Shown: positions 4,001-31,157 of the stretch, in pieces
Layout: each line of letters opens with the position of its first letter
Position numbering within the stretch: position 1 is the first letter of the stretch
Source of the DNA: Bacteroidales bacterium
GTDB lineage: Bacteria > Bacteroidota > Bacteroidia > Bacteroidales > JAAUTT01
NCBI GenBank assembly: GCA_038213375.1
Contig: JBBQTB010000011.1
Span: 54,340 to 118,339 of the forward strand
Reading direction: 5' to 3'
DNA: 64,000 nt
The notes under the pieces: model-generated
Told to the model about the DNA's origin: nothing
The model's database searches: none
Seen by the model: only the letters and a program-made list of their open reading frames with translations
Position numbers and translations under genes: made by a program

Positions 4001-4855
4001 GTCGAGCGTGAACTAAGTCGTGCCAATTCCAATCTATCCCAAGTGAGCAAAGTGAAAGATGCCATCAATCACTACCTTACCGACAAGGATAAGCTGGTGC
4101 AATGGATTAATAAGTTTTACAACGATATGCTTGCCAAGTCCTGGGTGTTTGATAACGAAAAAGTAGAAAGGAGAATTTCTGAATACAAGAACGCTCCGGA
4201 TGAGAAAGAGCAAGTAAAGAAGATAAAGGATCTTCAGAAGAAAGGTGAAGCCCTGAAAGCTGATATTGAAAAGGTTCAGACCAGTTCTTCTGTTCCTGAT
4301 AATGATCTTTTGGAATGTGCCCGCAAAATACAACGGGAAAGCCAGTATTTCAGCAACTACTGGATTGTAAACGAATTCAGGGAATCCATGTCCAACGTTT
4401 ACAAAATAGAACGTACCATACTGAAGCCGAAGAAACTTAGCATTTTCGACGACATGAGCGGTTTGGAAAGCGAATTGAAGAAAGATGTAATGGCTGCTGA
4501 ATCGAAACTCGCCAACTACAAAGGCGGACAGCATGGAGAGACCTCCAAACGCTTTCTGGAACTTTACAAGGAGATTGAGACCAAGAAAGAAACCCTGTCG
4601 GTAAAAGGCAAATCACCACTGGAACGGGCTGAAGATTTTTCCAGGCTCAACTACCTGCTTCAGTACCTGAAAGATGATTACGATCCGGAAAGTTGCCCAT
4701 TCCCTGAGCCAACCGACAAACCAGGGTACTGCGATGTTGCCACCAAACAACCGGGAATACCCACTCAAAACAGCCCAGATAATGAAAAGCGTATTCGCGT
4801 TGCCCGGATTAAAGCACAAGCTAAACTTAAGATGCTCGAACTTTTAAAAATATAG
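1013..4855 (+). CDS. SNF2-family (DEAH) helicase, 1280 aa, polyvalent-protein type
   Basis: Helicase motifs read in the translation: GVGKTMTAI (I), LVIDEAHRCKN (II), LLTATPFTNSPLEIYSML (III), GTATIREGIDLQ (V), QLEGRIWRQGN (VI). The N-terminal region (~340 aa) and the C-terminal coiled-coil region are unassigned. Confidence 0.85.
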   Translation: MKVNALSGIEGLSGLGELRQDLRKAIYENKAVVEKVLKQSQNLSGLGFLEGKKVDFTDVVKMYNEGISEAEIKAWIWYKRKQGIPMTLWSKMYNVDDKGIPELVKAGALLVCGKEFMPLPIYSFGNMYERRDQLLQDKEFISTTYGKDIFENHLKVVTGAISKALSVSEPDAKERPIIMAISEIARNKDTFSIQSVRPEFMDAENAEQLTKVNGKISVKRDSSSAKYKVIRLRFDGETEYSLRDVFVKWLYTLQQSDFDKSNAIDIAEYYIYNKPLKDDEMTSDQKAELKVNARNEGEKLFSRFLHEVLTTIDQKRLDETWNRMFNAQSDINHKRVPVGFECSSRFKSGLLQITPIQREGVAFFEALGSGICAFDVGVGKTMTAIINIATNIYSGKCKRPLVVVPKPTYKKWIGEIIGYTDKYTKEFVPGVLSYTGIKLNDWSNLGTGIKEKINFSKQVPENSITLVTYEGFKQIGFSGNVSETLFTELVNILGQSAEKSARDTEIDYQKYREKIGMGEKNTVCDIDILGFDYLVIDEAHRCKNVFEQVKSDDEGNKRYNITSAVSETGIKAFFHANYIQRTYGNNIMLLTATPFTNSPLEIYSMLSLVAYESMHRNSIYNINAFFDMFVLPTVEWTANYKDEIVEKEVIKSFTNRLVLQKLIYNHILYKTGEEAGVKRPVKVNLPKIYDTSPDGKTLKLSPAKQILTYIEPTVKQRRNQQNIVALAQKATSGKLNMGDLFRALAYSLDNALSPYLYVGNQDRPEDYKEFVEESPKILFACECCRTVKEYHERLAKSGSDNIPTVLKEVSGQVMYMNRGKGFFRYIKEYLEKEIGYKKNVLFNNTRFDEVEIIDSSISDIKKENVKEAFLEGIVKIIIGTATIREGIDLQKRGTVIYNLYPDWNPTDIRQLEGRIWRQGNEFAFVRSVMPLVQDSMDVFVFQKLEEKTGRINDIWFKADRGNVLDVESLDPQEVKLALITDVGRITALYFDEERREVERELSRANSNLSQVSKVKDAINHYLTDKDKLVQWINKFYNDMLAKSWVFDNEKVERRISEYKNAPDEKEQVKKIKDLQKKGEALKADIEKVQTSSSVPDNDLLECARKIQRESQYFSNYWIVNEFRESMSNVYKIERTILKPKKLSIFDDMSGLESELKKDVMAAESKLANYKGGQHGETSKRFLELYKEIETKKETLSVKGKSPLERAEDFSRLNYLLQYLKDDYDPESCPFPEPTDKPGYCDVATKQPGIPTQNSPDNEKRIRVARIKAQAKLKMLELLKI

Positions 4856-4857
4856 CC

Positions 4858-7299
4858 ATGTACCAGGAGAAAAAAGAAGTCGTACTGTTTGGTGTTGATT
4901 CAAAACTTCTGAAGCCATTTGTTCCGGAGTTAAAGATCCGCATGAACAAGGGTAAAGCCTTCGATGTGGACAAAGTCTCTTCCTCCAGGGATGTCTATGG
5001 GATTCTAAAACGGATTTATGGCCGGAATCCTATCCAGGAAAATTTTGTGATGTTGCTGTTTAACCGGGCAAACAAACTGATTGGGTATTACAAACATACT
5101 ATTGGAACAACAACAGCTACAATGGTGGATATTCCGATGATTATTGGCTTTGCCACCAAAGCCCTGGCACAAGGTGTTGTTATTTCACATAATCACCCTT
5201 CCGGAACACTTGCACCATCAGAACAAGACAAGGAGATTACCAGAACTATCACACAGGCACTAAAAACAGTTAAAATTAATCTACTCGATCATGTCATCTT
5301 CACCAATGAGGGCTACTACTCCTTTGCGGATGAAGGGGCTTTAAGCGGACTTAACAACACAGCTATGATAACAGTTGAAAACATCATTTCGGAATACACG
5401 GGTATCGACCAGGCTATTCTTCCTGATGCACTAAAAAAGGATGAATTTGAATTCATCAGGGAAAACATCGACCTGTATAATGAAGATGACACTATCAAAA
5501 AGTACATTGATACGTTCGTTGAAAAGCTTAATGAATTTGTAAACAAAGGATCGTCCAAATTAAAGCCTTCGAAAGAAAGTGATGAACCTCAAAAGTTAAA
5601 AAGTTCGGACATTCCTTCCATCGTGAAGAAATTCATGCCTAAGTTTCAGCAACAGGCAATCATTGGAAGTGAGGAACACATCGAGATAGTTAAACGACTT
5701 GAAAACGAAATCAAAGCAATCCCAAAAGATACAAGACAGGCGGATTTAGCATACCAGAAAGCGAAGGAAACCGGCAAAGCCAATTACATGGACTTTTACA
5801 TGGTATTTGCCCATTTTTTTCATGGGGCATCCGATTGGTATGTACTTTCGTGGGATGGCGATGAGATATTGTTCTGCTACGTTATTCTCAATGGCGATAC
5901 CCAAATGAGTGAAATGGGCGATGTTTCTCTCTCGGAATTGCATGAAAATCGTATTGAAATGGACTTTTTCTGGACTGTTAAACCTTTGTCCGAAGTTTTG
6001 TATAAAGCTTATCCCGATGAGTTTCCTGAGCCTGGTATGAAATCGAATATATCCAAAGAAACTAAAAAGCCCGAACCCGACGAGCAACCAAGTAAGCAAG
6101 ATAATTCCTTGTCCGTTGAAAAACTTGATCTGGAAGTGTCGTTTATTAAACGATATGTGGGATTACATGGGAAAACTAAAGAAAAGGCTCAGATCCTGAA
6201 TCTGCTAAACTCACTTCAAAAAGCCATCATCGAAAAACGAATCCGGAAGACTTCAGCTTATGCCAGCGAAATCAAAAACATCCAGCAACAGCTAATCAAG
6301 TGTTACAATCAGATGGGAAATACCATCAAAGTCTCCCTGGATGAAAACACGCTGGAAAAATACAGCCAGATTGCCCATAGTCAAAAAACGATGCTCGCTG
6401 TAACTTACATCAAGCAGTACATTGGCATACATGGTAAAAAGGATGTTAAGGATAAAGCCAAATCATTGTTAAGCCGGATAAATAAAGCTATTGAAATCGG
6501 AAAAATCCCTGAAACTTGCCCTTACTGGAACGATATTCAAGAAATCAAATCATCCCTGGAAGGCTATGTTGGAAATAAATCAAAAACACCTATAATAAGC
6601 GAAACCACATTAAATGGCATCATGTCCTGGATGGCAAGGCGACATCAAAAAAAACAGGTTGCCAAATACCTGCAAAAGATTTATGAAGCGGAAAGAGGAT
6701 TGAGGGGTGTTGAAAAGGAAGAAGAATCTACTTTAAGTATTAATCCGGAACCGGTGGTAATAACGAGTACAGAACTAGCCGGAATGAACTTCGAAACCAT
6801 TGGTTTAAAAGGTAAATACCGGAACTTAATTGGAGATCCTTCCGTCGGCTTTTCTGCAATGGTGTTTGGTTTACCTAAAAGCGGTAAATCCACTCTTTGC
6901 ATTGATTTTGCCAAATACCTGGCCGAAAATCACGGAAAGGTTTTGTATGTTGCCATTGAGGAAGGTTTCGGATATACTCTTAAAGAAAAGTTCGAACGAC
7001 TTGGTGCTTTACATCCTAACCTGGAAATTGCTGAGAAAATTCCCGATGATCTAACTACTTACCAGTTTGTTTTTATTGATTCGGTAAGCAAAGCAAATCT
7101 GACAAGCCAGGATTTAACCAAGCTTCGAAAAGACAATCCCCAAACAGCATTTATCTTCATCTTCCATACCACAAAGGAAGGTAACTTCCGAGGTAAACAG
7201 GACTTTGCACATGATGTGGACGTGATAATTGAAGTGGAGAATGGAGTTGCTAAAGCGAATGGAAGGTTTGGGATTGGAGGAAAAATTAATATATTCTAA
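4858..7299 (+). CDS. multidomain protein: RadC-like JAB domain + DUF2958-like region + tandem repeat + RecA/KaiC-like P-loop ATPase
   Basis: JAMM motif VISHNHPSGTLAPSEQD. WYVLSWDGDEILF...GDVSLSELHENRIEMDFFW resembles DUF2958 as I remember it. Duplicated module FIKRYVGLHGK / YIKQYIGIHGK. Walker A GLPKSGKST and Walker-B-like FVFIDSV near the C-terminus. Confidence 0.75.
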   Translation: MYQEKKEVVLFGVDSKLLKPFVPELKIRMNKGKAFDVDKVSSSRDVYGILKRIYGRNPIQENFVMLLFNRANKLIGYYKHTIGTTTATMVDIPMIIGFATKALAQGVVISHNHPSGTLAPSEQDKEITRTITQALKTVKINLLDHVIFTNEGYYSFADEGALSGLNNTAMITVENIISEYTGIDQAILPDALKKDEFEFIRENIDLYNEDDTIKKYIDTFVEKLNEFVNKGSSKLKPSKESDEPQKLKSSDIPSIVKKFMPKFQQQAIIGSEEHIEIVKRLENEIKAIPKDTRQADLAYQKAKETGKANYMDFYMVFAHFFHGASDWYVLSWDGDEILFCYVILNGDTQMSEMGDVSLSELHENRIEMDFFWTVKPLSEVLYKAYPDEFPEPGMKSNISKETKKPEPDEQPSKQDNSLSVEKLDLEVSFIKRYVGLHGKTKEKAQILNLLNSLQKAIIEKRIRKTSAYASEIKNIQQQLIKCYNQMGNTIKVSLDENTLEKYSQIAHSQKTMLAVTYIKQYIGIHGKKDVKDKAKSLLSRINKAIEIGKIPETCPYWNDIQEIKSSLEGYVGNKSKTPIISETTLNGIMSWMARRHQKKQVAKYLQKIYEAERGLRGVEKEEESTLSINPEPVVITSTELAGMNFETIGLKGKYRNLIGDPSVGFSAMVFGLPKSGKSTLCIDFAKYLAENHGKVLYVAIEEGFGYTLKEKFERLGALHPNLEIAEKIPDDLTTYQFVFIDSVSKANLTSQDLTKLRKDNPQTAFIFIFHTTKEGNFRGKQDFAHDVDVIIEVENGVAKANGRFGIGGKINIF

Positions 7300-7325
7300 G
7301 CGGAAAGTAAAAGTCTACTTTCCGC
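7300..7325. terminator. bidirectional stem-loop between convergent genes
   Basis: GCGGAAAGTA (7300-7309) and TACTTTCCGC (7316-7325) form a perfect 10-bp stem with a 6-nt loop. It lies directly after the stop at 7297-7299 and before the convergent gene end at 7336. Confidence 0.55.
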
Positions 7326-7335
7326 CTTGGCGTTT

Positions 7336-9045
7336 CTATTGAAACATTTTTGCTTTATCTATGATAGTTTCCGCTTTCTTCAGTTGTTTTTCGATATCCT
7401 TACTATCCTTGTCAATCAGAAAGATCATTTTATTCTGAACTGCTATGAGAAGGTTGGATAAATCCACTCTGGTTCTTCGGTTATTACTGGAATTGAGTTG
7501 TTTTGAAAAATCCATGTAAATGTCATTGTAAAAACTAAAGAGATGGGATTTTTTGGAAGCCGTATATCCCGAATAACTATCGCCGGAAGCTTGGTACATC
7601 TCTAATATTTTAGAATGATTTGAAATTATACGTTCTTCATTCTCCCTTATTTGTTTCCATTCTTTTGAATCATTCTCCTGTTCATTAAGTTTGGTCTGAA
7701 TATTATCATGTTTTTTCCTAATCTCTGAGAGCTCATTTTCAGAGAATACATCAGGATATTTTAAAAGTAAGGTATCTAAATTTGCCAAGGCACGTTTATC
7801 AGACCCCCATTGCATTGTTTTATCAATGGATTCATATAAACTCCTTGCTATTGAAGCTCTGCGATCTTTTTCTATTCCCCGTTCACATACATTTATCTTT
7901 TCATGAATTACATTGATATCTTCCTGATTTAAGTTTTCTTCATATTGATTAAGAATATTTTCGAAATTTTCCTTAGCATCTTTAAAATCATTGTTAACTA
8001 GAGATTCATCAGCAGATTTATACTCTTTCAAATCGGAAAGTTTATAAGAAGGAGTCTGTGTGAAAATATAGAATATGCCTTCCTTCCGATTCTCTACCCA
8101 ACCTGATTCCTGAATGTACTCGTGTGTGACGTCATTAAAAATGGAGGGACGATAAAAATAGGATTCATCACCAGGAATATATTTAAATCTAAAATCCGAA
8201 GATTTAAATGATTGAGAAAAATCGTAATCTTCATTATTGGTGGCATATACAGTATCAATTTTAATTTTATTGCTAGCTAAATCAGCAAGGGATATTTTCC
8301 CAGCAATAAAATCGTTCTTTATTTTAGTCATTTCCTCGTTATCAATTTCTTTAGAGGTGATTTTACCTGAAGCGGTCTCACGTACAATGAAACTTACTAA
8401 TATACCATTTCTAAAAACAATGCTTTTCTCCTTGTCAGCACTTTTGTAAAGCCATGTACCAATCATCTGTCCATTTTGATCAAATTGCCCAGTAACAGTA
8501 TTGTATTCGCTAAAAGGAGGAGTATTTACAAATTTTATCGGACCTGTTAGTAGGCCTTCCCGAAATGTGGCACTTAATAGTTCGGAAGGTACCGGTGAAT
8601 AGGGAGTCCAGGTAAAACCAAGCGCACTATATCGCTTTTCTCGGATTCTAGCATCGTACTTATATATACATGACCCATTAGGTTTACCATTTGTGTAGAT
8701 TGTTGTTAATGTTTTAGTACCAGTAATAAATCCTTCTCCATTTGTTGGCCAATCGGTAAACGTAATTAAAAACGACCATACCCCGTCTCTTTTATTATTT
8801 TTGAAATTTCCTGAAATAATAACTTTTTGAGAACTGATATCGTCTTTGTCAGAGTTAGTGAACTTAAAGGCACCATGTTTTATATATTCCAGTGTGGATT
8901 TGTCCTCATAGTAGGTGTATGTTGCAAAGCCTTTATTGACCGTGCCGTCATCATATTCACCACTATAAGTTTTTAAATTCTGACAAAAAACAAGATTACA
9001 AAATAACAGGAATAGTGTTGCTAATGAGATAATTTTTGAGTTCAT
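7336..9045 (-). CDS. secreted MORN/YwqK-type repeat protein with C-terminal helical region
   Basis: N-terminal signal peptide MNSKIISLATLFLLFCNLVFCQ. Recurrent G-x-W / NGK-x-G repeat units (YSGEYDDGTVNKGFATY, KNNKRDGVWSF, YTNGKPNGSCIY, FDQNGQMIGTWLY). Confidence 0.6.
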   Translation of the reverse strand: MNSKIISLATLFLLFCNLVFCQNLKTYSGEYDDGTVNKGFATYTYYEDKSTLEYIKHGAFKFTNSDKDDISSQKVIISGNFKNNKRDGVWSFLITFTDWPTNGEGFITGTKTLTTIYTNGKPNGSCIYKYDARIREKRYSALGFTWTPYSPVPSELLSATFREGLLTGPIKFVNTPPFSEYNTVTGQFDQNGQMIGTWLYKSADKEKSIVFRNGILVSFIVRETASGKITSKEIDNEEMTKIKNDFIAGKISLADLASNKIKIDTVYATNNEDYDFSQSFKSSDFRFKYIPGDESYFYRPSIFNDVTHEYIQESGWVENRKEGIFYIFTQTPSYKLSDLKEYKSADESLVNNDFKDAKENFENILNQYEENLNQEDINVIHEKINVCERGIEKDRRASIARSLYESIDKTMQWGSDKRALANLDTLLLKYPDVFSENELSEIRKKHDNIQTKLNEQENDSKEWKQIRENEERIISNHSKILEMYQASGDSYSGYTASKKSHLFSFYNDIYMDFSKQLNSSNNRRTRVDLSNLLIAVQNKMIFLIDKDSKDIEKQLKKAETIIDKAKMFQ

Positions 9046-9150
9046 AATGTTTTATATAATAATTATGAATCAAAAGTATACTGGAGGTATGCCAAAGAAC
9101 GGCACGGAATACGACCAACAATATTTTTTTATGAAATTTATTTAAAAGGA

Positions 9151-10380
9151 CTATTGAATGTTTGAGTTACAACTCAGAATTTTTACGTTTTCGAATAAAT
9201 TTTCTGCTTCTACTAAAAGACTTGTAACAAAATCAATACATTTTTCATTGTTAACTAAAGTTACATAAAGATACAAGTCAATATCATGCAACTTTTTGTT
9301 TCCCTTAAACTCAGAAGGGTTATACCAACCTAAAGACCAATCCGAGCTTTTTGTACCTGGTATAGCTTTTTTAACGCAATGGGAACATCTTTCAAATAAT
9401 TCATTTGCATGAATTTTGGTTATCAGGTTTTTTGATAATTTTTGATTTGATTCTCTTGACCAACCACACCTTAATCTATTATCTTTTTTGACTAACCTGT
9501 ATGCAAGATAAACACCAGCACTATCTTCACCTGCCTGCAACTGCACTTTCAAATCAGTATCTTTAATTTCAAATTCGAAACCTCTTTCATTTAATTGCTT
9601 TTCAAGAATTTTAAAGAAATTATCTAAAATTTCATTTTTCAGTGCTTCATACCCGGAAATGATTGCTGGGATAGAACTTAAGTACTCAGGATTTTCACAT
9701 AAAAGTTTTTTTATTTCATTTCCCATGGCATTTATGATTGACTGATTAGTTAAATATTTGATCAAATTAATATATTGATGAATAGTTTCTCTGATCATTG
9801 GAAGTGTTACTGATTCTTTCAAACATTTTTCCAGCCAGGACAAGATATCGACTGAATAGGAAATCCTTTGATATTTATTTTCTTCAAGTTCTTTCCTGCT
9901 TGATTCGCTGGCGTCTTTCCCATCGAGGGTTAAGTAAAGCAATGAAGTGTGTTGATAATTTTTCGAACCATGATTATGATAACGAAATAATTGTGCGATT
10001 TGGTCATCAGCATAGATTTTATTTTCGATAACAATGCAGTTGTTGCTGTTATCAGTTATCAGAATATCTATATTTCCTCCTTCTCTTCCATCCTCCGATA
10101 TTCTTCCTGTGAAATATTCAACAAAGGCTTCTGAATTGTCCGGATCAAAATTTTCTAGTCCAAAATGATCAAGGAATAACTTTAAATACAATGCATTTTG
10201 ACCATGTGTCCCTTTCGAGTTTAATAGTTCAGCTATAAAGGCTGAATGAAGCCTTACCTCCTTTGACTGGATTCCTAACGTTCTGAAAATATTAAAATTC
10301 TCACCTGTGGTTCTGGCTATTTGCTCATAACGCTGAGTAATTGAGGCAATTTCTAAAAATAGGTTGTGGAATTCTGGCAT
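9151..10380 (-). CDS. PD-(D/E)xK nuclease-superfamily protein (409 aa)
   Basis: EVRLHSAFIAELLNSKGTHGQ ... GNIDILITDNSNNCIVIENKIYADDQIAQLFRY gives a D...(I/V)ENK core with a flanking QL-RY motif. Full-length paralogue of the C-terminal ~400 aa of the 868-aa protein at 15991-18597. Confidence 0.65.
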   Translation of the reverse strand: MPEFHNLFLEIASITQRYEQIARTTGENFNIFRTLGIQSKEVRLHSAFIAELLNSKGTHGQNALYLKLFLDHFGLENFDPDNSEAFVEYFTGRISEDGREGGNIDILITDNSNNCIVIENKIYADDQIAQLFRYHNHGSKNYQHTSLLYLTLDGKDASESSRKELEENKYQRISYSVDILSWLEKCLKESVTLPMIRETIHQYINLIKYLTNQSIINAMGNEIKKLLCENPEYLSSIPAIISGYEALKNEILDNFFKILEKQLNERGFEFEIKDTDLKVQLQAGEDSAGVYLAYRLVKKDNRLRCGWSRESNQKLSKNLITKIHANELFERCSHCVKKAIPGTKSSDWSLGWYNPSEFKGNKKLHDIDLYLYVTLVNNEKCIDFVTSLLVEAENLFENVKILSCNSNIQ

Positions 10381-10521
10381 AATTATTTTTTTTGAATATA
10401 AATAAAAATGCTGTATTCAATTCTGCCCATACATCATTTTTAAAAATCCAAAGTTGGAAAATCTGACTGCCACGAATTGGCAGAGCCATATCTTTTATTT
10501 GCCTCAATTAAAATTTAAAAA

Positions 10522-11952
10522 ATGGATTACTTAAAACTTGCTTTAAACAATATGATTGCCTTTGGAGATACAGACATCTTACCAAGTGCTTATGAGTATA
10601 CATATTTAAAGAAAAAAGAAAAGTCACTCAATGGAGTTTTGGCCTTAATTAAAGAAATTTATGCATTTGAATTTAGTAGTTTGCCTATTACGGTTGAAAG
10701 AGATTATGGAAATTCAAGAATAGTTATGTTAATTGACCCATTATTGCATTTAGACTATTTAGCAACGGCAATAAAAATAGCTGAAAAATCGGAAAACAAA
10801 AGAGTACCAATAAATGAGAACAGGGTCCACTCTTATCGTTTTTCACCCGATCTGTTAACAGGAAAACTTTTTGACATTAAGTACGGATTTCATTCCTTCA
10901 AAGAAGCCATAAGTTTTAAAGCGGAATCGTTTAATGGTTTAGTTGTAAAAATCGATATCCGGAGTTTTTACCCATCCATTTTGCCAGAAATTATTAAAAA
11001 TGTTTTAGAAAAAAATGGAATTTGTATTACGCTCATCGAAAAGATTACAAGCCTGATAAACACAATAAATTCAGGAGTAGCAAAGGGGTTACCCATTGGC
11101 GGAAATGCTTCTCGTATACTTGCAGAGCTGGTACTAAACGAAATTGATCAGTACTTGATTTATAAAGAGATTGACTTTATTCGATTCGTTGATGATTTTG
11201 TAATTTTTGTTCCTCATGGCAAGGAGATTAAAGTGATAGATTTATTAAACGAAAAATTAAAAGAATTAAAGTTGAATATAAATTATAGCAAATTAAATAT
11301 ATACGAGTCAAGTCATTTATATTTATGGTCCGATTCTTTTTTAAGTAATATACCTTTTTACAATGATACAGATACCTTCGTGGAACCTGAGCAGGCAGAA
11401 CTATTAATAAGAGGACAAATTGAAAATATTAAAGAAGATAATTTTTTAAATTGGGGATTACTTAAATCATTAAATAAAGAAATATCCATTAACCGTGTAG
11501 CATTGCAGGTTGCTGGGGTTTTGGGCTTTTTGCACAAAGGTTTTGGCATTTATATTCAATGGGTCTTAAACCATTTTGACATCATTGATGACGAGGTATT
11601 TGATAAAATATACAGTGCTATTTCCAATTTACTAATAAATAATCATAGTGTAATTAATAATGAAATTAATAAAGCATTTGCAATTCGATTCTTAGTTAAA
11701 CTTGAAAAACCTCAAACAGTTATATTACTTGATGAATTATATCAACAAAATGAAAACAATGAGTTAGTTAAGTTAAATATTATTCATGTATTTGCACGTT
11801 GGCAAAAAATGGATTGGCTCCAAAAGAACATAAAAGATATCAGGAATTTGAATCTGTGGCAAAGAAGAGCTTTATTGATGAATCTCAAAAACCGGAATTC
11901 AATTTTTCCTGAAACAGAATTAACTCCATTGGAAATACTCCTTTGGAGTTAA
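10522..11952 (+). CDS. reverse transcriptase, UG/Abi-like (defence-associated type), 476 aa
   Basis: RT motifs in order: VVKIDIRSFYPSI (motif A Asp), GLPIGGNASRILAELVLNEID (B), IRFVDDFVIFV (C, xxDD), LKLNINYSKLNI (D/E). N-terminal FGDTDILP. The C-terminal ~200 aa are helical-repeat-like. No maturase, endonuclease or RNase H module. Confidence 0.8.
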   Translation: MDYLKLALNNMIAFGDTDILPSAYEYTYLKKKEKSLNGVLALIKEIYAFEFSSLPITVERDYGNSRIVMLIDPLLHLDYLATAIKIAEKSENKRVPINENRVHSYRFSPDLLTGKLFDIKYGFHSFKEAISFKAESFNGLVVKIDIRSFYPSILPEIIKNVLEKNGICITLIEKITSLINTINSGVAKGLPIGGNASRILAELVLNEIDQYLIYKEIDFIRFVDDFVIFVPHGKEIKVIDLLNEKLKELKLNINYSKLNIYESSHLYLWSDSFLSNIPFYNDTDTFVEPEQAELLIRGQIENIKEDNFLNWGLLKSLNKEISINRVALQVAGVLGFLHKGFGIYIQWVLNHFDIIDDEVFDKIYSAISNLLINNHSVINNEINKAFAIRFLVKLEKPQTVILLDELYQQNENNELVKLNIIHVFARWQKMDWLQKNIKDIRNLNLWQRRALLMNLKNRNSIFPETELTPLEILLWS

Positions 11953-11967
11953 TTCTGATTTTAAATA

Positions 11968-12174
11968 TTAAACTTTTTTAGCTCCCTGTATTATAACATT
12001 TTTTGCAGAAGGGAACATCATTTTAGCCCAACTACTTAACTTATCTCGGCCATTCGGGCTTGAACAGGCAATGTAATCTTCCACTTGTAATTCTAATGTC
12101 TTTTTTTCGATATGGCCAGATCCGTTTTGACCGTAAACCATGAAAGTAACTTCAGCTTTAATTGGTGATGGCAT
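11968..12174 (-). CDS. hypothetical small protein (68 aa)
   Basis: ORF only. Convergent with the RT (15-bp gap) and last in the minus-strand gene string. No motif recognised. Confidence 0.3.
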   Translation of the reverse strand: MPSPIKAEVTFMVYGQNGSGHIEKKTLELQVEDYIACSSPNGRDKLSSWAKMMFPSAKNVIIQGAKKV

Positions 12175-12208
12175 AATCTTAATTTTTGAATTTGTAGTTT
12201 AAATATAT

Positions 12209-12394
12209 CTAAATATTTGAAAAGTTTTGTAATCTAATTTTTACTTCAATCCAGATCTCCTCAATATCAATAATGTCTTGCCAGCATAAATGGGTATGAT
12301 CGTATAAATCGTGGAAAAGTGCACAATGAAATTGGTAACTATTCACCAACCTGCCTTTGAATTCTGAAAATCCAGGTGTTATTAACATTTTCAC
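12209..12394 (-). CDS. hypothetical 61-aa ORF abutting the IS66 end (possibly the displaced 3' part of the gene at 13894-14811)
   Basis: The ORF has a GTG start exactly at the apparent IS boundary. It has the same orientation as the ORF that abuts the other IS end. Confidence 0.3.
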   Translation of the reverse strand: MKMLITPGFSEFKGRLVNSYQFHCALFHDLYDHTHLCWQDIIDIEEIWIEVKIRLQNFSNI

Positions 12395-13913
12395 TGTATA
12401 AGTCCTAATAACTATGGCGTATTAAATGATTGTAAATTAGTTTTATCACTCTATTTTTGGTAAAAATTAAATAGATGACCAGCGAACAAAAACAAATCAT
12501 AGAATTAACCGATAAAGTTGATAAACTTGAATTGCTTGTGCGTATTTTATTAAAAGAAAATGAGTCTATTAAAGTTCTTGAAGCAAAGGTTAAGTCCTTG
12601 GAATTTGAGGTAACGACCTTAAAAGAAGAAAATGAACTTTTAAGACATTCCAAAAACAGTACCAATAGCTCCATTCCACCCTCAAAGGACGAAAATCGTC
12701 CGTTCAAAACCAAAAGTCTGCGTACTTCTGACGGGAAGAAACCTGGCGGCCAAAAAGGTCACCCAGGGAGTACATTAAAAATGGTTGAAAACCCTGATGT
12801 TATCATTGAACATAAACCATCCTCATGTATAAATTGTGGGCTCAGTTTGGAAGGTTCAGCCAGCGAATTACTCGCTCGAAAACAAATCGTTGACATTCCA
12901 CCAATAGTACCTCAATATACAGAACATCGCATATTTAAAAGCATTTGCACCTGTGGGGCACATACAATGTCTTTCTTTCCGGCTGGAGTGAATGCTCCCA
13001 TCAGTTATGGTCCAAATGTAGAGGCTATCATTGCTTATTCTCATGCTTTTCAATATATTCCTGTGCAAAGAATGAGTGAACAATTTTCCAATATCTTTAA
13101 CCTTCCCATCAGTTGCGGTGCCATCTGCGATATTCTGGACCGGTTTGCCAAAAAAGCGAAACCTACCTATTTGCAGATTGCTAAAAACTTAGAAAATAGC
13201 ACGGTCGTTGGTGCAGATGAAACGGGTGCTAAAGTCAACGGTAAATTGGGTTGGTTCTGGACCTGGCAAAATCATTTGGCCACCTTTATTGCATTTTCAT
13301 CTAATCGGGGATTTGCGACCATCAAGGAAAACTTTGCCCAAGGATTTCATAAGGCTATCCTGGTTCATGATTGTTGGAAAAGCCATTTTGACACCAATGT
13401 TAAATCTCATCAAATCTGTATCGCCCATTTACTTCGTGAGCTCAACTATTTAGAAGAGATACATTATAATGATTGGCCCACCAAGTTTAAGCAGTTGTTA
13501 TATGATGCCCTCGACCTTAAAAGATCATTAACTCCGTTACAATACACGGATAAAGTAATTCAAAGAACTCAACTGGAAGAAAGACTGATCAAACTATTGG
13601 AATCAGATATTCCAGTAAAACTGAAGGATATTCGAACCTTCCAAAAACGACTTGTCAAGTATAAAAACTACATATTCCCCTTTCTTTATTATGCTGATGT
13701 TCCACCAGACAATAATGGTTCGGAAAGGGCTATACGTAATGTCAAAGTAAAGTTAAAGGTTTCCGGCCAATTTAAAACCAGCATCGGCGCTCAATCCTAT
13801 GCTATCATTCGATCGATAATTGATACGTGTATTAAAACCGATCAGAATATTTTACTTACCTTTCGTGATATTGCGCTGGCGCAACCTGAATAGTTACTGA
13901 AATTGATGTTTTA
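12395..13913 (+). mobile_element. IS66-family insertion sequence, single-ORF (ISBst12-like) type; ends approximate
   Basis: A transposase gene fills the element. Only weak terminal similarity was seen around a shared TAACTAT core. No target duplication was found, so the boundaries are uncertain by tens of bp. Confidence 0.45.
12475..13893 (+). CDS. IS66-family transposase
   Basis: N-terminal leucine-zipper/coiled coil followed by NSTNSSIPPSKDE; CINCG zinc-finger-like motif; VVGADETGAKVNG; CIAHLLRE; PPDNNGSERAIRNVK. These are the characteristic IS66 TnpC signatures. Confidence 0.9.
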   Translation: MTSEQKQIIELTDKVDKLELLVRILLKENESIKVLEAKVKSLEFEVTTLKEENELLRHSKNSTNSSIPPSKDENRPFKTKSLRTSDGKKPGGQKGHPGSTLKMVENPDVIIEHKPSSCINCGLSLEGSASELLARKQIVDIPPIVPQYTEHRIFKSICTCGAHTMSFFPAGVNAPISYGPNVEAIIAYSHAFQYIPVQRMSEQFSNIFNLPISCGAICDILDRFAKKAKPTYLQIAKNLENSTVVGADETGAKVNGKLGWFWTWQNHLATFIAFSSNRGFATIKENFAQGFHKAILVHDCWKSHFDTNVKSHQICIAHLLRELNYLEEIHYNDWPTKFKQLLYDALDLKRSLTPLQYTDKVIQRTQLEERLIKLLESDIPVKLKDIRTFQKRLVKYKNYIFPFLYYADVPPDNNGSERAIRNVKVKLKVSGQFKTSIGAQSYAIIRSIIDTCIKTDQNILLTFRDIALAQPE

Positions 13914-14811
13914 GAGGGTGATCTTCGAAATGTTGGTATTCATTATGATTGTCGTGTACTAACCCTTTTAAAACTACATCTATACTTTCTTTTTTACTAA
14001 AATGCCACAGAAGAGGAATAAAACTAAAAAAAGGATTCCCTAACATTTCCTCAATATCTCCATACTTTTTTTCGGAAAATAGGGATACTTCAAATTCAAT
14101 TTCATAATCGGATATAAAAGTATCAGCAGATTCAATTTCTTTCAGAACATACTTTTCGAACTTTTCAGCTTTTAAGTAGGCTAGGTGCGACTTTAGTGCT
14201 ACTATTTTATTGATGGCTTCAATACGATTAATATTTTGCTCATTGAAGATAAAATACTTATTTAAGCTGTGTTTCCGCTCACCTAATTGATAAGTCTTAT
14301 TATGGTGCCAGGAAACCCATGATTTAGATAATTCATTATCTAGAAATAATTTATTTAAATACGAAAGTTGATTATAGGAAGTTGCCAATTTCCAGATGGT
14401 ATAACAAGACTCTTTAACTTCGTGTTCTTCAATGTACCTGTAGGACTCCCGTAAATGAATTCGCAGTCCGCTCTCCCCGAAAGCATGGTTGTTATAGTTA
14501 CGATGTGCATTTGAAGCAGTATCGGTAATTATTGAAGCACCAGCCTGCAATACAAGATCAATTTCAGCCAATGTTTTATAAAAATTGATTCTTGTTCCGT
14601 ATCCTCCGCCATTTATTGAAACAAAAACTAAATCATCAGGTGCATAAATTCCACAATTTACCGGAATGTTCTGCTTAGAGGCGTCAATCCCATACTGTTC
14701 AGTTGCCCTTCCTTTCCCTGTTACTGAAAAACCAATAAATTTGGTAGCGATATATGCTTTACTTTGATCTTTTAGTGTATGCTTGTTTTTATAAGTCAGA
14801 AGAAATCCCAT
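13894..14811 (-). CDS. hypothetical protein (305 aa); N-terminal Rossmann-like region with LOG/SLOG-like glycine loops; 3' end runs into IS66
   Basis: GFSVTGKGRATEQYG ... DDLVFVSINGGGYGTRINFYKTLAE resembles the GGGxGT loop of LOG/SLOG domains. Its stop codon (13894-13896) directly abuts the IS66 transposase stop (13891-13893), so its last codons are probably IS-derived. Confidence 0.4.
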   Translation of the reverse strand: MGFLLTYKNKHTLKDQSKAYIATKFIGFSVTGKGRATEQYGIDASKQNIPVNCGIYAPDDLVFVSINGGGYGTRINFYKTLAEIDLVLQAGASIITDTASNAHRNYNNHAFGESGLRIHLRESYRYIEEHEVKESCYTIWKLATSYNQLSYLNKLFLDNELSKSWVSWHHNKTYQLGERKHSLNKYFIFNEQNINRIEAINKIVALKSHLAYLKAEKFEKYVLKEIESADTFISDYEIEFEVSLFSEKKYGDIEEMLGNPFFSFIPLLWHFSKKESIDVVLKGLVHDNHNEYQHFEDHPLKHQFQ

Positions 14812-14845
14812 TTTTTATTAAATTGATAAGATATACTAACCCACT

Positions 14846-15934
14846 TTAGATGTTTTCATCAACAAAATGATTGAACAATGTTTGAGCCCCTGCATAATCC
14901 GGCGGCTTAACAAATTCAGTTACCATTCGCTCTTGCATTACTTGACCGAGAGTTGTTCCGCAAATAGGAGCATCAAGAAAAGTATTATACCCTTTAATGT
15001 TTTTTTTATTTACATTTCTTCGGAATGTAATGGCTGTTTCCATATCTAGTCCGGTAGCAAGCCTGAAAATATTCTCGAGTTGATAGGGATAGGCAATCCA
15101 CCCACCTGATTCGGCAAGCAGTACATCCAACAATGGGTGCTTTTCACCCTTAAACCTTAAAATTGGAATTTTTAAATCCCGAAAATGAGTTACCAGAACA
15201 GTTAAAAGTGTAAAATCAGTCCTGGGAATGCCTGAAAGATGTTCCAAAAAAGAAACAGGTAGTGTAAACGCTCCGACGAAATTGGATACAAACGAAAACA
15301 AACACTTCGGATTTTCTCCAGTTGTATGGACCAGGTATACCCAGGTATCATCATCATTCAGCAATGAGTTTGATTCTTCAAATGAAGGTAGAAGTCTGGC
15401 AAGCTCCTTGTTGCTTTTAAGCATAAAAGATGTTTCTTCCAACTTCAAATGGTTTACAGTCTTTAAGTTATTAACCAAATCCAGTAATGCCAGTTTGAAT
15501 TTTCTGTAAGGGGTGTTGATAAAAAAATAAATGGATTGACCTTTACAGATCACACAATACTCCAAACGAAGCTTGATAATTTTTAAAACTAGTTCTGGAT
15601 TTGAAAGATCAAGGATATTATCATGCAAATAAGTCTCGAAAGTCCGTATATGTGCTGCGTACTCAAAATCCTGCAACTGCACGGAAGCTTTTTTTTCATC
15701 TGCTAACACCATGGCTACATCTATATGTTTATCAACAAACCATTTCTCAGGTAAGGAAACACTATTGATTTCATTAGCTTCAATATCACCCTTTAAAGTA
15801 TCAATAAAGCCAAACCGGAATCCTTTTTGATGCAATTCTTCCAGTTTGGATTTTAATTCGGGCAATTCAGGTTGTGCAAGAAAAACCTGAAAGCTATGAT
15901 GTAATAATTTTTCTAAAGCATTTTCGACATTCAT
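14846..15934 (-). CDS. hypothetical protein (362 aa)
   Basis: ORF in an operon (34- and 56-bp gaps). Ordered motif string NDDD ... RTDFTLLTVL ... AYPYQLENIFRLATGLDMETAITFRRNVNKKN is reminiscent of C-family polymerase palm/finger motifs (see findings). No confident family call. Confidence 0.5.
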   Translation of the reverse strand: MNVENALEKLLHHSFQVFLAQPELPELKSKLEELHQKGFRFGFIDTLKGDIEANEINSVSLPEKWFVDKHIDVAMVLADEKKASVQLQDFEYAAHIRTFETYLHDNILDLSNPELVLKIIKLRLEYCVICKGQSIYFFINTPYRKFKLALLDLVNNLKTVNHLKLEETSFMLKSNKELARLLPSFEESNSLLNDDDTWVYLVHTTGENPKCLFSFVSNFVGAFTLPVSFLEHLSGIPRTDFTLLTVLVTHFRDLKIPILRFKGEKHPLLDVLLAESGGWIAYPYQLENIFRLATGLDMETAITFRRNVNKKNIKGYNTFLDAPICGTTLGQVMQERMVTEFVKPPDYAGAQTLFNHFVDENI

Positions 15935-15990
15935 GACCTTTTTTATGCAATGTTAAAAAGCCGGAACGCCAAAATGAGTCGCACTTAATT

Positions 15991-18597
15991 TTATTTCAGG
16001 TAATCTGTGGGTAAATTTAAATAATTGCAAAAACCTTTTATCTTCTCTTTAGATTCGTTAAGAATAGAATCAATAATTTTTTCTAATTCATGGTCTCCCA
16101 CGATCTTAAAAACTAAATCGTTTTCAAAATTTAGTTCATTAAAAGCTATGTTTAATAATTTATTTGTTTCTGGAAATTCTTGAAATTGTGGTCGTTCCCA
16201 TCTAATCCAGTCTTTGGAGATTTTTGAAATTTTGGACTCTTGAGCAGCTTTGGTATACTTTGCTAAATCTTTATCCGTGCAATCATGAACACTCCCATTA
16301 ATGTATTTAAATCCAAAGTATATGTTATTAAAGGATTCAATTGCAAATACAACTTTTTCGTTTTCGTTAATTTTTTCTAATAGAATTTCTATTCGGGGAT
16401 ACTCATTTTTTCTTTCCCATTTATTTTGTGAAATATTATCCCATGTCACATTAAATTTTTCTTCGGCCTTTTTCTTAAGCACTACCCAAAAATTCTTCTG
16501 AATATTTCTTTTAAAAGATTCAAAATAAGTAGCTATTAGGGTAGCTGCTTTGAAGTTCTTTTCATCAGAGGCAACCAAAGATTGGATTTCATTTAAAAAT
16601 ACCGAACTCATACTTTTCCCTGTAATTTGTTTAATCGTTTTTGTATAATGTATTATAATCTGTTTTATCTGAGGATATTCATAGCAGGATACGGCACACT
16701 TTTCCAACCAATTAAGGATGTGAGTCACATATGAAATTTGATAATATTCAATATTCTTACATTTTTCGTCTCTTGATTCAGTACCAGTCAACGTAAGAAA
16801 TAGTAAGGTTTTTGACCTACACCCATTATAATTTGAATACCTTATTAATTGGTTCTCTCCTTCTTTTGCAAATACTTTGTTTTCAATAATAATTGAATGA
16901 TTATTACTATCTGTTATAATTATGTCTAAAAAGCCGCCTTTTGTTTCAGTTTTAATTCCAATAAATTTTTCAGTCTCTACACGGGCTGATGTGGTTATAA
17001 ATTTTAAAAGGTCAATTTCAGGAGGTAAACTGGAAATAAAATGCTTCAGGAAAACATCCTTCATTTGGTGTGTTCCATAAGGATTTAGTAGCTCGGCAAT
17101 GAAGCGCGAATGTAAATGAACTTCATCTGTGGTTAAATCTAATATTTCGAAAATATTAAAACCTTCTTTTTTTTCTTCTTTCTCTTTGTTATAGCTATCT
17201 AACTTAACTTCAATTTTTTCAAGAAAATCTACACTTGCCAATTTACTCGTTTTTTGTTCCAATACTTCTAATATTTTAACCATGGCCAAAGTATCCAATT
17301 TGCAATAGGCCAGTAAATCATTTCGTGTTTTTTTTATAATAGCTATATCTTTCTCGTACATTAGAGTGTAGTAGGTATTGCTGGCAATACCTCCATTGTT
17401 TATCTCAAGATCTTTGTAAGTTAACTCAGGACATAAAGAGGGCAATACTTTTTTAATAGAATAGCTTCCCTGCATATAGTCGCATGTATAATGCTTGCGT
17501 CTGAAAACAGGCATTAAATCTACAAGTCTGTCAATTATATCTTGAATTTCATTCTCATACTTAGGGAAATCACGCTTAATTTCCTTAAGCCGTGTTTTCT
17601 CGAAGGTAACATTGTACACTATAATCTGTCCGGGCAGTGGGGTATCTTTAATTAATTGTTGAATAAGTTCTTCACGAGGATCTTCTGTTGCATTTCCTAA
17701 ATACTCGAAGTGCTGTAAATCGGAATTCTTTGAAGATTTAAAGTGCAAGCTGTACTGGAAAGTAATTTGCTGATAGGGATGAGACTCGTTAAAGATCGGA
17801 ACACCTGGCATTATTGTTTCGAAATCCAGAAAGTATAAGGGATACGATAATGAATCTAAAAACTCTTTAACACCACTATGGTTGATTATTGGAGTGCGAC
17901 TCAGGGATTCAGGATCAAATTCTATTGAAGGAGGCTGAAGACTTAAGCAATAATTTCGGAAATCACATTCGTATGGCCTATTGCAGTGTTCGCCAATACT
18001 AATTTCCGGTTCAATATCAGAAGCAAGTATAACTAAAAATTCTTCAATCTTATCGCTGATACCAAGTTGCATGGGCAGAAAACGGTCAAGCACACTTTCT
18101 GTGCAAAAAAGCTCCTGAATGTTCAGGTCACCTTTTCGAACATATTGGTTGTTTAAAAACATCACTGATGCATCACTAAGATCAACACCACAGTTGGTTA
18201 CGATATAGTACTGAATAGCAGTATCAATAATATGAGCTTCTTTAACGTGGGTAGTACTCTTCATCTCAAAAAGCTGCCAGCGGCCATCCTTTCTGGAGAG
18301 AATATCAACAGCAACCAAAGTATTTTGGTAAATAAAAGTAGCTTCATAAATTGTTTCGATGCCACTTTCAATAAGATGGGCAGTGCGTTTGGCAGATTCA
18401 ATTCCGGGTATTTCGTTTTCACCAACAGCCAATATCCCATTTGGAAAATATTGCCTTGCCAATACACCAATATCCGTTCCTTGATTAAAAATTGACAATG
18501 AAGCATCATCAACAAACCTTTGATCACTTTTATGAGTATTTAGCCATAACGACTTTTGGCATTTTACACCTCTGACATATTTCGATTTTGATAGCAT
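15991..18597 (-). CDS. three-nuclease-domain fusion: DUF2779-like (Cas4-type PD-(D/E)xK + DEDD-like exonuclease) + C-terminal PD-(D/E)xK module
   Basis: N-terminal part: C13 plus CNRPYECDFRNYC (4-Cys Cas4-type cluster) and VAVDIL...LFEMKS. Middle part: YFLDFETIMPG, VYNVTFEKTRL and AYCKLDTLAM (exonuclease-like motifs I-III). C-terminal part: EVHLHSRFIAELLNPYGTHQ ... GFLDIIITDSNNHSIIIENKVFAKEGENQLIRY. Confidence 0.65.
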   Translation of the reverse strand: MLSKSKYVRGVKCQKSLWLNTHKSDQRFVDDASLSIFNQGTDIGVLARQYFPNGILAVGENEIPGIESAKRTAHLIESGIETIYEATFIYQNTLVAVDILSRKDGRWQLFEMKSTTHVKEAHIIDTAIQYYIVTNCGVDLSDASVMFLNNQYVRKGDLNIQELFCTESVLDRFLPMQLGISDKIEEFLVILASDIEPEISIGEHCNRPYECDFRNYCLSLQPPSIEFDPESLSRTPIINHSGVKEFLDSLSYPLYFLDFETIMPGVPIFNESHPYQQITFQYSLHFKSSKNSDLQHFEYLGNATEDPREELIQQLIKDTPLPGQIIVYNVTFEKTRLKEIKRDFPKYENEIQDIIDRLVDLMPVFRRKHYTCDYMQGSYSIKKVLPSLCPELTYKDLEINNGGIASNTYYTLMYEKDIAIIKKTRNDLLAYCKLDTLAMVKILEVLEQKTSKLASVDFLEKIEVKLDSYNKEKEEKKEGFNIFEILDLTTDEVHLHSRFIAELLNPYGTHQMKDVFLKHFISSLPPEIDLLKFITTSARVETEKFIGIKTETKGGFLDIIITDSNNHSIIIENKVFAKEGENQLIRYSNYNGCRSKTLLFLTLTGTESRDEKCKNIEYYQISYVTHILNWLEKCAVSCYEYPQIKQIIIHYTKTIKQITGKSMSSVFLNEIQSLVASDEKNFKAATLIATYFESFKRNIQKNFWVVLKKKAEEKFNVTWDNISQNKWERKNEYPRIEILLEKINENEKVVFAIESFNNIYFGFKYINGSVHDCTDKDLAKYTKAAQESKISKISKDWIRWERPQFQEFPETNKLLNIAFNELNFENDLVFKIVGDHELEKIIDSILNESKEKIKGFCNYLNLPTDYLK

Positions 18598-18653
18598 TCG
18601 AATCCTTCTTAAATTGATTTAACCTAATTTCCTTACAAAAGAGTCTATAATGT

Positions 18654-18983
18654 TCATTCGTATTTTAATTCGATATTTTCAAGAGCACTTAATGACTCCT
18701 TTTCTAACTGACTGATAGTGTCAAATTGCCTCTTAAGTTTCTCTATTTCAGATTGAGATACATTTTTCAAAAGCATAGCTACATCGACAGACTCAGCATA
18801 AGCAGTTATGAGCTTTCTTAATTTTTCAAAGTTTTTCACCAGCTTCTTTTGGTCCGCTTCATCAATGGTGTTCCGGGGATATAATAATTTTACCCTTTTA
18901 ATTAGTTCTGTCATCAGATTCGCTTCATCCTGAGTATAAATTAATTCATCCTTACCCTGAATGTGTTTTAAAATATTTTCCAT
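18654..18983 (-). CDS. hypothetical small coiled-coil protein (109 aa)
   Basis: Begins 8 bp after the WYL gene stop. Charged heptad-like sequence. No motif recognised. Confidence 0.5.
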   Translation of the reverse strand: MENILKHIQGKDELIYTQDEANLMTELIKRVKLLYPRNTIDEADQKKLVKNFEKLRKLITAYAESVDVAMLLKNVSQSEIEKLKRQFDTISQLEKESLSALENIELKYE

Positions 18984-18991
18984 TTCTAATA

Positions 18992-19894
18992 TTATTTATA
19001 TTGATTCAAAGTTGATTCAAGATTCTCGATAATAACCGTTCTTAAACTTTCAGGAGCAATAACTTTCAATTCATTTCCATGAGAAAGTAATTCCATCAGA
19101 AAATCATAAGTTATTTGCAGCTTTAGCTTAATCCGTAATTCATTTTCATTATCAACTATAATACTCTGAGAACGGTGTAGAGGTTGTGTTTTTATGAACT
19201 TTCCTTTTAAAGGCTGAAACGAGAGCTCTATATCTTCCGCCTTTTCATCAGATAATTTAAAAATGCCATATGAGTCTTTGAAGAAACTTTCCGGAGTTAG
19301 ATTCGGTGGTGTATCATAACTGGCCGATGCAGAAACAGGGACAGGGTCGTTAACGATTCGTTCCAATGCGTATATTTTAATCTGATTCTTCTCCTTACCA
19401 ATAACATACCATCTATTTTTATATTCCTTAACAAAATATGGTTCAATTATTCTTGTCAGAGGTGTTTCATTAACATACTTCTGATATGTAAACTCAATTC
19501 TTTTTCGGTTTTGGATAGCATCCAGCATTAATAATAAATGATTACTTCCACTTTTTCTGGGCTCTGACGCAATATAACTTTCAGCTTCTTTGAATATATG
19601 ATGTAAATTGATGTAGCGATAAGAGTCCATCAATAAGGTTGTATTTGAAGGAGTAAGCTCTTCGTCAATGAAGTAACCTTTGTGCTGGGTACTATACTTG
19701 ATTTCAACACCAAATAGATCGGTTATTTCACTTTTATCACGAATAAATGTTCGTTTTGAGAATCCGGCTTCAATGTCATCTCTAAATTCCGACTTAAAAA
19801 ATTTTTCCTCAATTTCATCATAGGAGATGTATGGCTTGTTTTTTATTAAGTCGTACAACCATAAGTAACGCTTGAAAAATGCTCGTTTTGACAT
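18992..19894 (-). CDS. WYL-domain transcriptional regulator (BrxR/CapW-like architecture)
   Basis: N-terminal wHTH-like region, then IEFTYQKY...IEPYFVKEYKNRWYVIGKEK (WYL core) and a C-terminal extension. I prefer the ATG at 19892-19894 (MSKRAFFKRY...) over the listed start at 19948. Confidence 0.75.
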   Translation of the reverse strand: MSKRAFFKRYLWLYDLIKNKPYISYDEIEEKFFKSEFRDDIEAGFSKRTFIRDKSEITDLFGVEIKYSTQHKGYFIDEELTPSNTTLLMDSYRYINLHHIFKEAESYIASEPRKSGSNHLLLMLDAIQNRKRIEFTYQKYVNETPLTRIIEPYFVKEYKNRWYVIGKEKNQIKIYALERIVNDPVPVSASASYDTPPNLTPESFFKDSYGIFKLSDEKAEDIELSFQPLKGKFIKTQPLHRSQSIIVDNENELRIKLKLQITYDFLMELLSHGNELKVIAPESLRTVIIENLESTLNQYK

Positions 19895-19916
19895 GTTCTT
19901 TATTTTTATTGCACAA

Positions 19917-19963
19917 AGTAAAACTTTGCCTACGCCAAAGAATGGCACAATTAAAGTTTTACT
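19917..19963. promoter_or_regulatory. inverted repeat upstream of the WYL1 gene (candidate operator)
   Basis: AGTAAAACTTT (19917-19927) and AAAGTTTTACT (19953-19963) are perfect 11-bp inverted repeats. They lie 23-69 bp upstream of the preferred start codon. Confidence 0.4.
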
Positions 19964-29891: not shown

Positions 29892-29926
29892 TTTATCGGA
29901 ATGCTTTTATTTGTAAGGTTTGAAAT

Positions 29927-31156: not shown

Positions 31157-31157
31157 T

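Follow-up and report, generated by a model that had tools for sequence, protein, structure and literature searches.

A rare, short DRT8-like reverse transcriptase lineage lacking the canonical nuclease effector in a Bacteroidales defence island

The question raised by this locus is whether a reverse transcriptase (RT) gene and the PD-(D/E)xK nuclease-family gene that diverges from it form one defence system, or whether the RT works by itself. Both genes lie in a 64,000-nucleotide stretch from a Bacteroidales bacterium (contig JBBQTB010000011.1, positions 54,340 to 118,339), which we analysed as a whole and refer to as the window. The names of homologues, a GC content of ~35% and the style of the promoter point to a Bacteroidota-like source. 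A preliminary description, made from the sequence alone, presented the RT as a stand-alone enzyme of the UG/Abi type and did not connect its pairing with such a nuclease to any named type of defence-associated RT (DRT). On balance, the computational analyses presented here lean towards a defence polymerase of UG/Abi class 1 that is intact and autonomous, a divergent short offshoot of the UG7/DRT8 lineage from which the canonical effector has been lost, with the nuclease as a separate gene of the island.

The two open reading frames (ORFs) and the divergent layout were found as first described (Table 1). The RT matched Pfam RVT_1 at 47.6 bits (cut-off 29.6; E 2.1e-12), and the complete RT motif series that had been claimed was located in the translation, with D145, D224 and D225 invariant and Y105 near-invariant in an alignment of 32 homologues. 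An AlphaFold2 model computed with 32 input sequences (pLDDT 87.6, pTM 0.87) was wholly helical over residues 289-476, in agreement with the HEAT-like C-terminus proposed earlier, and a profile search returned a weak match to the designed alphaRep 6ft5. When the model was compared with the PDB using Foldseek, the top full-length matches were UG15/DRT4 structures (9l9s and 9vdo; TMq 0.60-0.63), and further full-length matches were obtained with DRT6 (9wy8), Abi-P2 (7r08), AbiA (8oz7) and AbiK (7r06), confirming the suspected likeness to defence RTs of the AbiA/AbiK/Abi-P2/UG group. Profile comparison with structures found no solved DRT8 structure to set beside the RT. RTs of UG/Abi class 1 are defined by the fusion of an RT to HEAT-like alphaRep repeats (PMC9226505), and the RT of the window is an enzyme of this class with its active-site residues intact.

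Other kinds of RT were rejected, in line with the statement that the locus carries no group II intron, retron or diversity-generating retroelement module. The group II intron RT model TIGR04416 stayed at 53 bits, far below its cut-off of 300, Rfam revealed no intron RNA, and the C-terminal region is an alphaRep domain according to Foldseek and no maturase. Similarly, the retron model NF038233 scored 40.6 bits (cut-off 235) and no retron RNA was found with Rfam. No template repeat/variable repeat pair was present; within positions 7000-19000 there were just short chance repeats of 70-78% identity.

Among the PADLOC models, Drt8 was the best match to the RT by far (1.1e-80, 270 bits; the runner-up, RT_UG36, reached 83 bits) and the alignment ran nearly from end to end (RT residues 2-455, profile positions 5-461 of 493). 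Within class 1, the UG7 group comprises one variant accompanied by a remote PD-(D/E)xK nuclease, 'cluster 17' (150 out of 385 members), and a second variant that is partnerless; a partner gene is missing from roughly half of UG7 (PMC9226505). The combination of UG7 with the 'cluster 17' nuclease was named DRT type 8 (Mestre et al. 2022, PMC9226505). One UG7 system guards E. coli against T5, and mutating the active site of either the RT or the PD-(D/E)xK protein abolishes this protection, a dependence demonstrated for that one canonical system alone (PMC9226505). Since DRT8 already names a UG/Abi RT together with a PD-(D/E)xK nuclease, the statement that the pairing corresponds to no named DRT type was wrong as regards the kind of system.

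For comparison, we used 75 canonical DRT8 loci, comprising 47 from species-representative genomes and additional metagenome loci. Their RTs were mostly ~525-540 aa long and scored 524-536 bits with the Drt8 model. In 53 of the 75 loci the RT was followed by a same-strand gene of ~230-265 aa, usually with a 4-bp overlap, and this downstream gene matched PADLOC RTasPDDEXK (3.9e-58 and 9.3e-64). The window resembles these loci in its best RT profile, in the class 1 layout of RT plus alphaRep, in its defence-island setting and in the presence of an adjoining gene of the PD-(D/E)xK superfamily. In contrast, its RT is 25-30% identical to canonical DRT8 RTs, reaches about half of their Drt8 score, which makes it a divergent sublineage, and is ~60 aa shorter. 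Instead of a coupled RTasPDDEXK gene of ~240 aa, a convergent 68-aa ORF follows it, and a hidden Markov model (HMM) built from 55 RTasPDDEXK sequences found no such gene in a six-frame scan of the whole 64 kb. Classification with HMM sets, as the preliminary description had proposed, thus gave Drt8 as the best model for the RT, while the locus itself is not a canonical DRT8; membership was rejected on the absence of RTasPDDEXK from the window and on a neighbouring nuclease that is unrelated to that effector.

The RT belongs to a rare, discrete subclade: when 5.8 billion protein clusters were searched with single sequences and with a profile, exactly eight clusters of this kind were recovered. 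Their RTs are 38-55% identical to that of the window and score 250-270 bits with the Drt8 profile. A profile made from the subclade gave 685-796 bits for the eight clusters and 271 bits for the next match. Additional members were scarce: the profile search of the same 5.8 billion clusters added none, a genome scan returned canonical RTs only, a metagenome scan contributed a single new contig that nearly duplicates the locus L006, and the two matches of a viral scan were both canonical. There was no match in a phage collection, and plasmids gave distant partial matches only.

All eight genomic contexts were retrieved, several of them on short contigs, and RTasPDDEXK was absent from every subclade locus. 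Five of the eight contexts were syntenic with the window, with flanks 50-92% identical, and shared the order of a 569-aa secreted protein, a variable slot, the RT, a 68-aa ORF in some cases, a ~347-aa gene and a 362-aa gene. The slot is occupied in the window, whose RT is the 100% reference, by the divergent 409-aa PDDEXK_4 gene; in L004 (RT 52% identical) by an unrelated 243-aa protein without family match (2015-2746, minus strand); and in L005 (55%) by a 363-aa AAA ATPase (542-1633, minus strand). In L006/L055 (51%) no ORF of at least 60 aa was found in the ~890 nt of the slot, and in L091 (53%), whose flank is 92% identical to that of L005, the 298-nt slot contained no gene. Among the remaining loci, L007 (39%) presented an upstream peptidase-like gene (HExxH read from the sequence) and a downstream WYL regulator, L001-3 (42%) a tight operon of a DnaB_C-like ATPase, the RT, a 100-aa protein, RNase_T and PDDEXK_4, and L092 (38%) lay on a short contig whose context could not be judged. 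Adjacency between RT homologues and this nuclease family, which the preliminary description had suggested checking, is therefore not consistent; within the subclade the slot varies or is empty.

The 243-aa protein of L004 was also considered as a hidden relative of RTasPDDEXK or PDDEXK_4. This candidate was dropped, as hmmsearch returned nothing and the hhalign probability was at most 0.1%; no Pfam or PADLOC match was found for the protein. Together with the AAA ATPase of L005, which also stands at the nuclease position, it is a candidate alternative partner or unrelated island cargo.

The 409-aa protein of the window matched Pfam PDDEXK_4 (128.4 bits, cut-off 22.3; E 3.9e-37) and, over its full length, three PADLOC PDC-S26 models (E 1.3e-98 to 4e-90), while RTasPDDEXK gave no PADLOC match at E <= 0.01 and hhalign comparison of the two family profiles gave a probability of 0.3%. 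Compared with the DRT8 effector, it thus represents another PD-(D/E)xK family, differs in size (409 aa and ~240 aa), is encoded upstream and on the opposite strand, and its adjacency to the RT is not conserved. Residues D105, E119, K121, Q130, R133 and Y134 were 100% conserved among 70 homologues, so that the predicted catalytic residues, the D-ExK-Q..RY set shared with PDC-S26, are intact. In Foldseek searches of the PDB with the AlphaFold2 model (pLDDT 90.8), the nuclease core alone was matched, weakly, by NucS/EndoMS, Card1/Can2 and Shedu SduA, and no match was obtained for the C-terminal half (~213-409).

The distribution of the nuclease family also separates it from the RT. Searching at E <= 1e-20 yields at least 913 members of it, no fewer than 100 times the number in the RT subclade. 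Of its relatives, the four closest ones with usable contigs (47-55% identity) are found in variable cassettes that a WYL/WCX regulator heads, downstream of this regulator, and none of them has an RT neighbour, so the adjacency fails from the nuclease side as well. PDC-S26 itself is a computational single-gene candidate only. The nuclease is most likely an independent, mobile defence-island gene occupying a variable slot and not an obligate subunit of the RT. With a characterised DRT type as the best RT model and a nuclease neighbour that is not conserved, the case for a new pairing made by the preliminary description has largely fallen away.

A second PDDEXK_4/PDC-S26 domain is present in the window, in an 868-aa protein that combines it with an N-terminal DUF2779; over 244 aa it shares 36% identity with the 409-aa nuclease. 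A regulator gene of the WYL/WCX family (BrxR/CapW-type) immediately precedes and heads this gene, and the same layout of WYL followed by PDDEXK_4 is found in L086-L090.

By analogy with its structural relatives, the RT is most likely a stand-alone, protein-primed, template-independent DNA polymerase. The lack of RTasPDDEXK, the lack of a detectable non-coding RNA (ncRNA; see below) and the unconserved neighbour slot make the 'stand-alone' label given earlier a probable one. DRT4 (UG15) and DRT6 (UG12) are single-gene, protein-primed, template-independent synthases of single-stranded DNA (ssDNA); DRT4 primes on Tyr125 and its product is random ssDNA, which the phage protein ORF55 shields from host exonuclease (PMC12783706). 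They share with the window RT the single-gene architecture of RT plus helical repeats, the top full-length structural matches and a near-invariant tyrosine similarly far upstream of the catalytic DD, Tyr105 lying 119 residues before it (115 in DRT4). In contrast, identity in the structural alignment is 15-17%, the Drt4 models gave 62.7 bits in NCBIfam (cut-off 450) and 71 bits in PADLOC, and the priming residue and product of the window RT are predictions. AbiK and Abi-P2 are likewise protein-primed and template-independent (PMC9508834). Together with AbiA (PMC11077055) they resemble the window RT in the full-length fold of RT plus C-terminal helices, and the Abi-P2 and AbiK profile matches reach into the C-terminal domain. 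They differ from it in sequence (13-17% identity) and in their N-terminal priming regions, and AbiA carries a HEPN domain that the window RT does not have.

Transcription of the RT would begin at a Bacteroidota-type promoter, where a conserved dyad may bind a regulator. According to the analogy, the enzyme would oligomerise through its C-terminal helical-repeat domain. It might then prime on its own tyrosine, with Tyr105 of the invariant S104-Y105-R106 motif as candidate, and synthesise ssDNA with no template. On phage infection this ssDNA would accumulate or be protected, and would block phage replication or kill the cell (abortive infection).

Several observations weigh against an autonomous RT. 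Canonical DRT8 defence needs the nuclease active site (PMC9226505), so an effector-less DRT8-like RT is not obviously sufficient, and there is no biochemistry for any DRT8 (PMC13213688, PMC13314766). Tyr105 is a candidate primer by its conservation and its spacing to the DD alone. The sample is small, with eight subclade loci. Moreover, among canonical RTs those that bear an effector are the nearer ones to the subclade, with median scores of 134-155 bits as compared with 100-124 for those that lack it, a pattern compatible with either replacement or loss of the effector. Finally, at the level of Pfam families, PDDEXK_4 lies within 1 kb of the RT in 2/8 subclade loci (the window and L001) compared to 0/47 canonical genome loci, and in L001 one tight operon contains the RT, RNase_T and PDDEXK_4.

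The alternative to which these points lead is a two-gene DRT8-like system in which the RT is joined by the divergently encoded PDDEXK_4 nuclease as a replacement for RTasPDDEXK. In a wider form, the RT would have interchangeable effectors in its upstream slot (PDDEXK_4, the 243-aa protein or the AAA ATPase), activated by the DNA product of the RT or by an infection-induced change of its state. The need of canonical DRT8 for its nuclease makes such a system possible, and the predicted catalytic residues of the window nuclease are intact. Effector domains of class 1 systems are readily replaced, according to Mestre et al. (PMC9226505), and in three syntenic loci a different opposite-strand gene begins 134-146 nt upstream of the RT. 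However, the slot is empty in L006/L055 and L091, and in L007 it holds what looks like a housekeeping zinc peptidase. The nucleases of the window and L001 are too divergent for tblastn or a strict family HMM to link them, and the 2/8 enrichment reflects two events, is confounded by taxonomy and is at most suggestive. The occurrence of the closest nuclease relatives without RT and the entry of the family in PADLOC as a single-gene candidate also argue against it, and unrelated adjacent genes are the rule in defence islands. We therefore regard effector replacement as a serious though rather unlikely explanation. A little less likely still is the fuller version, in which the 476-aa lineage would be a distinct DRT8-derived system that shed its dedicated RTasPDDEXK and uses interchangeable effectors in the divergent slot, the RNase_T and PDDEXK_4 operon of L001 among them, under a shared, dyad-controlled promoter region; we hold this combination as a whole to be doubtful.

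RNase_T-type (DEDD) exonuclease genes were also encountered beside canonical DRT8 RTs. In four canonical loci (L011, L016, L018 and L030) such a gene precedes the RT and is translationally coupled to it, and in a fifth (L052) it lies 6 nt upstream. The succession of RNase_T and PDDEXK_4 occurs with an RT in L001 (RNase_T at 6179-6667) and without one in L086 (3349-3831). The proximity of RNase_T to DRT8-type RTs is notable because a host exonuclease controls the ssDNA product of DRT4. As a separate observation, one canonical-type DRT8-like RT (P0254) is annotated to the ciliate Halteria grandinella, and is probably bacterial contamination or symbiont sequence.

Dependence on an ncRNA was a further possibility, already raised in the preliminary description. 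DRT2, DRT3 and DRT9 (UG2, UG3/UG8 and UG28) have an adjoining structured ncRNA, and a scaffold or template RNA might come from the 141-bp spacer or from the sequence right after the RT. The preliminary description had seen no sign of one, noting a T8 run and a 6-bp hairpin in the spacer, both of which are present (Table 1). The spacer folds slightly better than shuffled sequences (z = -1.88; 6 of 200 shuffles fold as well) and the dyad that forms the hairpin is conserved: 7/8 subclade loci have it at an unchanged offset (-55 to -39), with the approximate consensus GTGyCrCAGAATGGCAC and a T-rich TAnnTTTG-like box after it. Nevertheless, neither the window region nor any of five subclade loci gave a match in Rfam, a search that would miss an RNA without an entry there, and no terminator-like site was found in the spacer. 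Upstream conservation across the subclade loci is limited to ~60 nt beside the RT start codon, in a promoter-like layout, and the dyad arms vary among loci without compensatory changes. A covariance check upstream of RT homologues, suggested in the preliminary description, accordingly revealed no covariation and just this short conservation. The upstream spacing ranges from a 20-nt overlap in L001, where the RT lies within an operon, to ~890 nt, and the best structural relatives are ncRNA-free and protein-primed. The NCBIfam models of ncRNA-dependent DRTs stayed below their cut-offs on the RT (Drt2, 27 of 390 bits; Drt3a, 63 of 200; Drt3b, 45 of 350). An ncRNA-dependent RT is thus very improbable.

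Bacteroidota-type promoters have a -33/-7 layout. From its position and sequence, the dyad is likely an element of such a promoter (-33 region), possibly an operator, and not an RNA element. The evidence for it is conservation in register and not rarity of the pattern, which has three matches in the window with 1.4 expected. A sigma-54 reading of the dyad, judged by eye, was dropped for lack of a GC element at -12. The 569-aa gene is preceded by a similar dyad, which is kept in L004 and has a TACTTTTG box after it. Both dyads of the window follow the pattern TGCCr-N5-TGGCA, stand ~40-60 nt before a start codon and are conserved in relatives; they may be candidate sites for one regulator, perhaps a WYL protein of the island.

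The genes downstream of the RT were considered as parts of a larger system, which would comprise the RT, the convergent 68-aa ORF, the ~347-aa and 362-aa genes, the 868-aa DUF2779-PDDEXK_4 protein and the WYL regulator. In the window, L004, L005, L006/L055 and L091 the RT is followed by the two genes of ~347 and 362 aa, and the run of minus-strand genes is headed by the WYL/WCX regulator. The 68-aa ORF, for which no family match was found in Pfam, PADLOC or NCBIfam, is 82% identical to the ORF at the same position in L006/L055 and is thus probably a real small gene. However, the loci come from related genomes with flanks 50-92% identical, so this co-occurrence is synteny by descent and not independent evidence, and the downstream genes are absent from the more distant L001 and L007. 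They are also convergent with the RT and not co-transcribed with it. In the window, the ~347-aa gene, intact in L055, is split by an IS66-family transposase gene while the RT is intact. A larger system is accordingly improbable, somewhat less so than an ncRNA-dependent one, and the autonomous polymerase beside a separate nuclease gene is still the explanation that we favour on balance.

The window as a whole is a defence island, with an SNF2 helicase, a RadC-AAA protein, two WYL regulators, a type I restriction-modification (R-M) operon and IS3 and IS66 elements. The WYL regulators, both WYL/WCX proteins, are encoded at 18992-19948 and 22055-23089. The SNF2-family helicase gene is followed 2 nt later by the gene of an 813-aa protein that has a RadC-like JAB domain at its N-terminus and an AAA_24-type ATPase at its C-terminus, a pair that looks like a further defence or mobile-element module. 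In hsdM, the N6_Mtase match begins at profile position 170 at residue 1 of the protein, so the start is possibly mis-called or the 5′ end truncated.

Table 1. Features of the window discussed in the text (nucleotide positions in the window; residues refer to the 476-aa RT or, for the split gene, to the ~347-aa product)
Feature	Position	Strand	Remarks
SNF2-family helicase and 813-aa protein	1013-7299	+	Helicase 1280 aa; second gene 2 nt later
Dyad upstream of the 569-aa gene	9090-9104		Similar to the spacer dyad
PD-(D/E)xK nuclease-family gene	9151-10380	-	409 aa; ORF with ATG; Pfam PDDEXK_4
Divergent intergenic spacer	10381-10521		141 bp; RT promoter region
T8 run	10386-10393
Dyad CTGCCA-CGAAT-TGGCAG	10467-10483		6-bp arms; 39-55 nt upstream of the RT start
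RT	10522-11952	+	476 aa; ORF with ATG start
RT domain	~residues 50-265
Motif DIRSFYPSI	residues 145-153		Read off the translation
Motif GLPIGGNASRILAELVL	residues 189-205		Read off the translation
Motif FVDDFVIF	residues 222-229		Read off the translation
Helical-repeat (alphaRep) domain	residues 289-476
68-aa ORF	11968-12174	-	Convergent with the RT
~347-aa gene, residues 304-344	12212-12334		Part of the split gene
IS66-family transposase gene	12475-13893		Inside the conserved ~347-aa gene
~347-aa gene, residues 1-305	13900-14811		Part of the split gene
DUF2779-PDDEXK_4 protein	15991-18597	-	868 aa
WYL/WCX regulator	18992-19948	-	BrxR/CapW-type
IS3-type integrase	25268-26110
Type I R-M operon	26763-32714	-	hsdR 1042 aa, hsdS 409 aa, hsdM 518 aa

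The family, its role in defence and its modularity have been described before, so the contribution is incremental whichever explanation applies; what is new here is a rare, short DRT8-like lineage without the canonical effector. The mechanism of DRT8, together with those of DRT1 and DRT5, is unresolved according to 2026 reviews (PMC13213688, PMC13314766), and a DRT8-like RT lineage without a dedicated nuclease bears on whether the DNA product is itself the effector, as in DRT4, or a signal for the nuclease. Protection by the RT on its own would make the nuclease of DRT8 an accessory, and if it protects only together with the gene of the variable slot, the lineage would show effector modularity. 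Should the interchangeable-effector reading be true, these loci would constitute a case of natural effector swapping around one DNA-synthesising sensor and would provide the first functional context for PDC-S26.

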